This document shows positions 21,322-21,545 of a stretch of DNA of 25,458 nucleotides, in pieces. The DNA is from a virus (lineage: Duplodnaviria > Heunggongvirae > Uroviricota > Caudoviricetes): the IMG/VR virus record IMGVR_UViG_2778261385_000001, one strand, 5' to 3'. The notes under the pieces were generated by a model, which worked only from the letters and a program-made list of their open reading frames with translations, searched no databases and was not told the origin of the DNA. The position numbers were made by a program, and so were the translations under genes. Positions within the stretch are counted from its first letter, which is position 1, and every line of letters starts with the position of its first letter.

Positions 21322-21347
21322 AATAAAAAAGCCAGCATGTAGCTGGC
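21322..21347 (-). terminator. Rho-independent terminator (tR'-like, second of two) in the Q-S intergenic region
   Basis: Minus strand GCCAGC-uacau-GCUGGC followed by UUUUUUAUU. Confidence 0.6.
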
Positions 21348-21423
21348 AACAGAGGGTTAAGCAATATCAACTCAACAGCTGAAGACACCCTGGCTGGGGT
21401 AGGTTGGAAGGCTACTCACCGTT

Positions 21424-21460
21424 CAGAAACAGAAAAGCCCAAGGCTTTAAACCTCGGGCT
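21424..21460 (-). terminator. Rho-independent terminator-like hairpin (first of two) ~50 nt downstream of the putative late promoter
   Basis: Minus strand AGCCCGAGG-uuuaaag-CCUUGGGCU (9 bp with one G-U) followed by UUUCUGUUUCUG. Confidence 0.5.
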
Positions 21461-21510
21461 TGAATTTGGATTACTGCCAGTGCGTACAACATTGGCAAAA
21501 TATCAGATTT

Positions 21511-21545
21511 ACATAAAATATATGATTTTTAATCCAGTTTTGCAA
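21511..21545 (-). promoter_or_regulatory. Putative late promoter (pR'-like), sigma70-type
   Basis: Minus strand TTGCAA (-35, 21540-21545), 17-bp spacer, TATATT (-10, 21517-21522), overlapping the stop codon of the Q-like gene and directed toward the lysis genes. Confidence 0.45.

Follow-up and report, generated by a model that had tools for sequence, protein, structure and literature searches.

What does a late promoter followed by two terminators do in front of the lysis genes of a temperate phage: is it one switch with its own back-up, or two pieces of regulation that happen to adjoin? The question is posed by the interval between the gene for the Q antiterminator and the holin gene in IMG/VR virus record IMGVR_UViG_2778261385_000001 (Caudoviricetes), a stretch of 25,458 nucleotides (nt) that we analysed whole and refer to here as the window; it is an Escherichia coli lambdoid prophage with its late region on the minus strand. 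The original prediction, made from the letters alone, placed here a promoter (TTGCAA-17-TATATT) overlapping the stop codon of a Q-like gene, followed by two hairpins with U-tracts, and all of these are present on the minus strand at the positions given. What they belong to, however, is probably not one unit: we read the interval as two independent regulatory modules lying end to end, an 82-type late promoter with its leader terminator (pR'-t1), and then a second terminator followed by a stem-loop (t2-X). We base this on the sequence features themselves, identity to phage 82, conservation and covariation across the family and modular distribution, all of which were directly observed.

The proposed joint between the Q module and the lysis module

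The features on the two sides of the joint, in the order in which they would be transcribed, are as follows.

21425-21461, minus strand: t1, the leader's intrinsic terminator (12-bp stem, 3-nt loop, UUUUCUGUUUCU)
21348-21424, minus strand: t1-t2 spacer of 77 nt, an empty cargo slot and mosaic joint
21322-21347, minus strand: t2, an intrinsic terminator and first half of the pre-lysis element (GCCAGC-UACAU-GCUGGC, then UUUUUUAUU)
21264-21320, minus strand: stem-loop X, 57 nt, second half of the pre-lysis element (RNAfold free energy, ΔG, -27.6)
20902-21219, minus strand: holin gene of the LydA type, the first gene after t2-X (Pfam PF16083, E 8.2e-22)

In blastn searches, homology with the Klebsiella phages that carry Q82-type antiterminators ended at ~21433, at the end of t1, and the segment 21373-21263 matched Salmonella phage UPF_BP1 and coliphage mEp237, in both cases just upstream of the holin gene and behind other types of Q. 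Across its hosts (prophages of E. coli, Klebsiella, Enterobacter, Citrobacter, Kluyvera and Raoultella), t2-X was found behind Q82-type pR' promoters with or without cargo, and also behind Qs that are not of the Q82 type. The distance from the pR' transcription start site to t2 ranged from 170 to 993 nt across relatives, whereas t2-X ended 12-48 nt before the first lysis open reading frame (ORF) in every locus, even though at least seven holin types followed it (LydA-like of 101-105 amino acids (aa), lambda-S-like, and types of 67-74, 82, 92, 123 and 131-133 aa). The second terminator is therefore more aptly seen as belonging to a separate pre-lysis element that follows the lysis cassette, rather than Q, and the interval looks like a tandem terminator because the 3' end of the Q module meets the 5' end of the lysis module across an empty slot.

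The original prediction had cast the second hairpin as a back-up stop. It is indeed a second stop in series, but it does not appear to have been built as a back-up, since it is half of the independent t2-X element. We consider it improbable that t1 and t2 form one unit in which t2 evolved as a redundant safeguard for a leaky t1 within the Q-pR' module. Such an origin would suit the window, where the two terminators stand 114 nt apart with nothing between them, the U-tract of t1 is imperfect and t2 is necessarily the second stop; it does not suit a homology that breaks at t1, a t2 shared with phages of other Q families and held at a fixed distance from the holin gene instead of from pR', or the fusion of t2 to X, for which a back-up has no role.

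In relatives, the interval between t1 and t2 is a site of cargo: tRNA genes (Asn, Thr, Gly, Arg), ORFs of 60-170 aa or small RNAs (sRNAs) of the STnc100 type. In the window neither a tRNA nor an Rfam match nor a credible ORF occurs in this interval, and since the window as a whole has no tRNA, there is no tRNA cargo as in the Stx-type relatives. The original claim that no room exists for a toxin-type cargo such as stx is thus borne out, the entire intergenic region measuring 309 nt, with no tRNA and no sense ORF longer than 35 aa. Could t2 then be a leftover, namely the terminator of a deleted cargo (moron) gene that has no present function? We think this very improbable. The cargo ORFs and tRNAs of relatives do lie directly upstream of t2, and the t1-t2 interval is a mosaic joint; against this, t2-X accompanies many different cargoes and also stands where there is none, the same cargo-free layout recurs in ~800 complete E. 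coli genomes (mostly at ≥95% identity), and the t2 stem has been kept by compensatory changes across genera (6 of 6 pairs changed on both sides across 38 matches, with 98.7% of cells paired).

Terminators that flank lambdoid morons offer a functional parallel to the two-module reading, in that t2 would likewise end transcription of the cargo slot and shield the lysis genes; unlike them, t2 is tied to no particular cargo, is fused to a covarying X and has a fixed place before unrelated holins. A hairpin with a T-run also precedes the class II holin gene of prophage PP2 in E2348/69 by ~45 nt, but its sequence is unrelated and it gives no match to R1, our covariance model of t2 and X. The sRNAs PasA and PasC have been reported to adjoin holin genes in prophages of enteropathogenic E. 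coli (EPEC), and we therefore considered whether t2 could be the terminator of an sRNA of that type; this candidate was rejected, as PasA is on the opposite strand with an unrelated sequence, and PP2 of E2348/69 lacks t2-X.

With regard to the sRNA cargo, we observed STnc100 (Rfam RF02076) downstream of the Q82-type pR' leader in other genera, sometimes in multiple copies, in loci L008 (1468-1660), L009 (1452-1646), L012 (2171-2368), L019 (4171-4358) and L031 (4697-5333), and in the first three of these it lies between t1 and t2-X. A 2026 preprint relates STnc100 to PasD of EPEC.

The t2-X element

The t2 hairpin (GCCAGCUACAUGCUGGC, 21347-21331) has six GC pairs and is followed by UUUUUUAUU; its predicted stability (ΔG -11.9 kcal/mol, z -3.9) was equalled by none of 200 dinucleotide shuffles. 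Directly after the U-tract comes X, whose 13-bp outer stem pairs CAGGCUUGCGGGG (21320-21308) with CCCCGUGAGCCUG (21276-21264), whose loop holds a conserved GCUUUGUYGUUAAAU, and whose end lies 45-57 nt upstream of the two candidate start codons of the window's holin gene. A third terminator that a simple scan called at 21314-21293 is not independent, being the inner part of X.

The R1 model gave full-length matches at 35 of the searched loci (E ≤ 2.3e-4), a number that takes in 20 of the 27 loci found in genomes of other genera. In the R1 alignment, 91.8% of cells pair (compared with 73.3% in shuffled sequence) and 19 of the 19 pairs have changed on both sides, the X stem contributing double changes at 13 of 13 pairs; the covariation score of the whole structure was 0.48, as against 0.16 for shuffled sequence and at most 0.076 with partners slid by 1-3 columns. 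Folding without the model predicted the long-range X stem in 28 of 29 sequences, formed by 25 distinct arm pairs (median z -3.4), and the G.U variants found on the minus strand speak for a structure of the RNA and not of the DNA. RNAalifold run on MAFFT alignments, both of the leaders described below and of t2-X, yielded little because stem arms were out of register, and was replaced by folding of each sequence and alignment to covariance models.

Taken together, t2-X is a conserved, covarying and unannotated element that is absent from Rfam. Nothing in Rfam 15 matched it at the gathering threshold. At E ≤ 5 the sole alignment was to VqmR and spurious (17.9 bits against a gathering threshold of 76), as it takes in unrelated upstream sequence and is good only over the t2 hairpin and U-tract. 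A pattern made from the t2 tail and the sequence that follows it occurred in 72 IMG/VR viral contigs, and blastn with another t2-X variant returned 55 phage records, mostly of Klebsiella temperate phages together with HK225 and mEp237, in none of which is the element annotated; its core sequences were also absent from the searchable text of papers. A 35-aa ORF with a GTG start (21388-21281, minus strand) runs over t2 and half of X, matches no Pfam family and most likely does not code, because the indels of relatives in this stretch are not multiples of three.

We see two uses for the element. If it controls basal silencing, messenger RNA (mRNA) processing or the timing of lysis, t2-X would be a portable regulatory unit within lysis cassettes; and it would serve in practice to mark where the lysis module begins and where the slot for tRNA, sRNA and toxin-gene cargo lies.

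The phage 82-type promoter and its predicted IsrJ-like leader

Upstream of the joint, the following features make up the first module, of which t1 (above) is the 3' end.

21529-22218, minus strand: gene for the Q antiterminator, phage 82 family (full-length match to Pfam PF06323, Phage_antiter_Q, E 2.6e-93)
21517-21545, minus strand: putative late promoter pR', 82 type (consensus scan, family conservation and match to phage 82)
21486-21510, minus strand: initial transcribed region with predicted pause element (sequence match to published 82 pR' positions)
21430-21510, minus strand: predicted leader RNA of ~80 nt, IsrJ-like, the 82-type counterpart of lambda 6S
21474-21498 (+13 to +37), minus strand: leader hairpin 1, UUGCCA-AUGUUGUACGCAC-UGGCAG (in both the minimum free energy and the centroid structure of RNAfold)

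The gene that had been called Q-like does encode an antiterminator, and one that is identical to phage 82 Q (X92588) at 223 of 229 aa (97%). On the minus strand, a -35 hexamer TTGCAA (21545-21540) and a -10 hexamer TATATT (21522-21517) are separated by a 17-bp spacer, within which the Q stop codon TAA (21531-21529) falls. Over the last 92 nt of the Q gene there are 7 differences from phage 82, none of them in the promoter, and X92588 agrees with the window at every base of the -35 and of the first 11 spacer nt, as far as the Q stop; the direct comparison ends there, where X92588 itself ends. Taking the A at 21510 as the putative +1, the transcript would begin AAA, and would have TG at +6/+7, TATTTT at +9 to +14 (21502-21497), GCC at +15 to +17 (21496-21494) and, as the predicted site of pausing and Q loading, U at +25 (21486). 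These are the published marks of 82 pR', at which the pause-inducing element is -10-like, nearer to consensus than that of lambda and provided with an extended -10 (Bird et al., PMC5001585), and at which the pause needs GCC at +15-17 and occurs at +25/+26, the wild-type terminal base being U (PMC5001585). Phage 82 Q binds between the -35 and the -10 and engages polymerase paused at +25, with NusA assisting (PMC4914094); by analogy, the window's spacer would hold a Q-binding element. The AAA start also fits the slippage initiation at the 82 late promoter to which an entry in the reference list of PMC5001585 refers.

Because Q is 97% identical and the initial transcribed region carries the published pause marks, the window promoter is, judged by its sequence, an 82-type pR' and not a new promoter. 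The original prediction was right in taking it for the cognate late promoter of Q, but what it described in generic terms is more specifically a phage 82 pR' with a putative sigma70-dependent pause element. The window shares with phage 82 the Q protein, the -35, the spacer to the Q stop, the extended -10-like element, GCC at +15-17 and U at +25. Its promoter and, probably, its first terminator closely copy the long-studied phage 82 Q/pR' switch, and are in this sense already known; as a copy of a textbook switch, this half rightly shows where the lysogen holds back late transcription, and changes little.

A consensus scan found 2 promoter-like sites in 2 kb, where 2.4 are expected by chance from shuffled sequence, and the promoter call must therefore rest on the phage 82 identity and on conservation, as the hexamers are not above chance. 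That they are no commoner than in shuffled sequence is also what could be expected if the elements were chance matches in a decayed prophage, with no active promoter and no functional terminators. We find this hardly credible, given that the deposited PhiR47_2 phage genome is 100% identical over the 421 nt queried, that Q is so close to phage 82 Q, that both hairpins beat 200 of 200 shuffles, and that the layout is conserved family-wide.

This conservation was assessed by searching one genome per species, which yielded 27 loci with Q proteins 58-76% identical to the window Q, from at least 10 genera (among them Kluyvera, Citrobacter, Enterobacter, Raoultella, Leclercia, Atlantibacter and Phytobacter). 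In all 27, the end of the Q coding sequence overlaps a promoter of the form TTGCNN, 17 bp and a TATATT-like hexamer, after which comes (A)AATCTGATAT or a sequence close to it, and all 27 have, after the initial transcribed region, a hairpin followed by a GC-rich hairpin with a T-run. Among 55 distinct promoter segments, the majority-base frequency was 0.88 in the -35, 0.88 in the -10 and 0.95 at +1 to +11, as compared with 0.66 at +12 to +30, and TGnTAnnnT at +6 to +14 was present in every variant of the initial transcribed region that we listed. A terminator was found in 48 of 49 distinct leaders. When 31 distinct leaders were folded individually, every one had a 3' terminator hairpin, whose stem ended at +65 to +84 and occurred in 16 sequence versions, and most had a predicted 5' hairpin, of three clear sequence classes. 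In close E. coli relatives one position of the t1 stem steps from G-C through G.U to A-U; the t1 hairpin, like that of t2, has been maintained by compensatory changes. The layout is therefore good evidence that promoter, pause element and t1 are one functional unit travelling with Q.

Three further observations concern the promoter region. The pR' spacer (21523-21539, minus strand, and the same site in L012-L038) falls into a few discrete classes, AACTGGATTRAA, AAGTCAATTAAAT, AACCGAACTGAAA and GAAATGAACTAAT. On the plus strand, TTGCaatatcTTGC (21540-21553) matches the consensus for CII binding, TTGC-N6-TTGC, and shares bases with the palindromic -35 TTGCAA; the homologous site is annotated in the phage 434 record as a CII site and as the -35 hexamer of the antisense promoter paQ, which reads into Q, and its conservation across the Q82 family looked inconsistent. 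A second plus-strand candidate, TTGGCA-16-TAAAAT (21492-21519, 10 of 12 matches), faces into Q and overlaps the pR' start region, and we judged it to be probably a chance match because its hexamers complement family-variable positions of pR'.

The first terminator consists of the hairpin AAGCCCGAGGUUUAAAGCCUUGGGCUU (21461-21435) followed by UUCUGUUUCU. The predicted hairpin stands, but its length does not, the stem having 12 pairs instead of 9. The folding-energy check that the original prediction proposed favours both terminators: t1 (ΔG -18.4 kcal/mol, z -4.4), like t2, had no equal among its 200 dinucleotide shuffles, and the 2-kb region held 7 terminator-like sites where 2.1 ± 1.5 are expected. 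Transcription from pR' to t1 would give a constitutive leader of ~80 nt, a prediction that is well founded by homology. This had been foreseen as an analogue of the lambda 6S RNA, and the position of t1, the short pR' RNAs on record (PMC7547250) and the 74-nt IsrJ of Gifsy-1 (PMC2330248) all support it.

The relation to IsrJ emerged via Gifsy-1 and a search by E-value; a scan of the whole window against Rfam at the gathering threshold gave no match. The Gifsy-1 leader matches the isrJ model at 100 bits, and isrJ scored above gathering in 16 of 20 Q82-family loci scanned, beginning 19 nt past the Q stop. Leader hairpin 1 is the counterpart of the first helix of the isrJ model, and the window leader falls below the isrJ threshold because this first hairpin differs, being of the class UGCCAAUG...CACUGGCA rather than GUCGCC...GUCGAC. 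The window leader is thus an IsrJ-like variant, and not a certified member of isrJ. It shares with IsrJ of Gifsy-1 the same promoter (47 nt, 91.5% identical), the same 5' UGUAAAUCUGAUAU, a two-hairpin build, a 3' end at a terminator and its length. In Gifsy-1, however, the promoter-leader unit is parted from Q by an inserted isrK-orf45-anrP module, whereas the window unit lies directly at Q. As a separate observation, the Q82-type promoter and IsrJ leader of Gifsy-1 (L011, 385-583 and 1202-1308) lie ~840 nt downstream of antQ, and the isrK-orf45-anrP insert matches the Rfam C4 antisense RNA with its a1/b1 targets, a P1-type immI-like module in which IsrK overlaps the a1/b1 match. Under this layout, IsrJ would serve AntQ as its cognate loading site and leader.

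IsrJ is known in Salmonella, from primer extension and northern blots, as an RNA of 74 nt that is HilA-dependent and whose deletion lowers invasion and effector translocation (PMC2330248). The IsrJ literature that we examined treats it as an island sRNA downstream of anrP, with no description of it as a Q-dependent pR' leader. Tying the Q82-type pR' leader to isrJ would give this invasion-linked Salmonella sRNA a simple origin, and predicts related small RNAs in many lysogens of E. coli, Klebsiella, Enterobacter and Citrobacter. Of 5426 complete E. coli genomes, 881 carry related sequence; if the link is true, IsrJ-like RNAs would be made constitutively in this roughly one sixth of the total, O157:H7 strains included.

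Would the RNA then be the point of the arrangement? The lambda 6S RNA is ~194 nt long. Lambda 6S and StxS follow the same logic that we propose here, namely a constitutive late promoter, a promoter-proximal terminator, a short RNA in the lysogen and read-through only with Q (PMC7547250); the window differs in having a Q of another family (PF06323) and a shorter leader, with no processing implied, and in this comparison isrJ was the sole meaningful Rfam match to the leader. Short RNAs terminated downstream of pR' have been reported for lambda, 21, phi80, 82 and P22 and suggested as a source of regulators, and StxS, cut by RNase E from a 258-nt primary transcript to 74 nt, is a functional pR' RNA (PMC7547250). 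That the leader is chiefly a trans-acting, Hfq-dependent regulator like IsrJ or StxS, with t1 mainly serving its production, could draw on this precedent, on the description of IsrJ in Rfam as an 'Hfq binding RNA' together with its effect on Salmonella invasion, and on the sRNA-like build of the leader itself (a single-stranded 5' end, a hairpin, an A/U-rich linker and a terminator with a U-tail). We nonetheless regard it as unlikely to be the main explanation, seeing that the best-conserved part of the leader, +1 to +17, is explained by a pause element acting at the DNA level, and that the linker and hairpin 1 vary freely among relatives, such that no conserved seed is evident. An sRNA function is in any case compatible with the two-module explanation rather than exclusive of it.

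Proposed mechanism and neighbouring genes

With promoter activity, the exact RNA ends, the efficiency of termination, dependence on Q and any role of X all taken as working assumptions, the two modules would operate as follows. Host sigma70 RNA polymerase would start at ~21510 and pause near +25, where sigma70 rebinds the extended -10-like TGATATTTT at +6 to +14. Without Q, the polymerase would meet t1 and release the two-hairpin leader of ~80 nt, a member or variant of the IsrJ family. After induction, Q would bind the promoter spacer, load onto the paused polymerase and render it terminator-resistant. The second terminator would stop any polymerase not modified by Q, be it one that leaked through t1 or one that set out from a cargo promoter, and this block would therefore keep the holin, endolysin and spanin genes silent in the lysogen; the Q-modified polymerase would read through both terminators. 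As X would be transcribed only by Q-modified polymerase, it would be part of the late mRNA leader. More speculatively, the U-rich stretch that links the t2 hairpin to X could be a cleavage site and X a protective 5' stem-loop of the lysis mRNA, and such a uniform leader would keep upstream cargo of any kind from affecting holin expression and the timing of lysis.

Several points weigh against this account, or against parts of it. The match to 82 pR' rests on published positions and on the 3' end of X92588, and we infer the promoter strength, the real 3' ends of the RNAs and the read-through in the window prophage. The U-tract of t1 is interrupted (UUUUCUGUUUCU), and t1 could thus be leaky or, conversely, sufficient alone. 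The isrJ model (RF01393) aligned end-to-end to the window at 21513-21434, but with 30.4 bits, below the gathering threshold of 37 (E 9.6e-4 in a 501-nt search). The covariation in t2-X was counted on an alignment fitted to the model, which is only partly offset by the model-free folding. Finally, pairing of the X loop with the ribosome-binding region of the holin gene, one conceivable means by which X could act, was not supported, since duplex energies across 29 loci were no better than those of shuffled loops (median z +0.2).

What may be new here are the t2-X cassette and the link of IsrJ to Q82-type late promoters. We put forward, tentatively and with rather more doubt than attaches to the existence of two modules, that t2-X is a cis-acting RNA cassette, so far undescribed, by which temperate phages of enterobacteria gate and standardise the expression of their lysis genes, and that IsrJ is a Q82-type pR' leader.

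The genes around the interval are arranged in the order NinB, YbcO, RusA, a YlcG-like gene, Q, the intergenic region, holin, a lambda-R-like endolysin and Rz/Rz1 (minus strand, 5' to 3'), with Bor encoded on the opposite (plus) strand. The holin has two candidate starts, TTG at 21219 (105 aa, as in the phage record) and ATG at 21207 (101 aa, as in RefSeq), of which the first would give a protein beginning MAIHMHEK...; together they form a possible dual start. Most holin ORFs that follow t2-X in relatives likewise have two starts 3-4 codons apart (MxxM or MxxxM), which is the dual-start pattern of holin/antiholin pairs, and a small hairpin often lies over the Shine-Dalgarno sequence. Cargo is also carried 3' of the lysis genes: bor is listed at 19608-19949 on the plus strand, and a 126-aa ORF on the minus strand (19229-18849) consists only of a TonB C-terminal domain, is labelled in the phage record as a partial tonB-like gene and is present too in prophage CP-933N.

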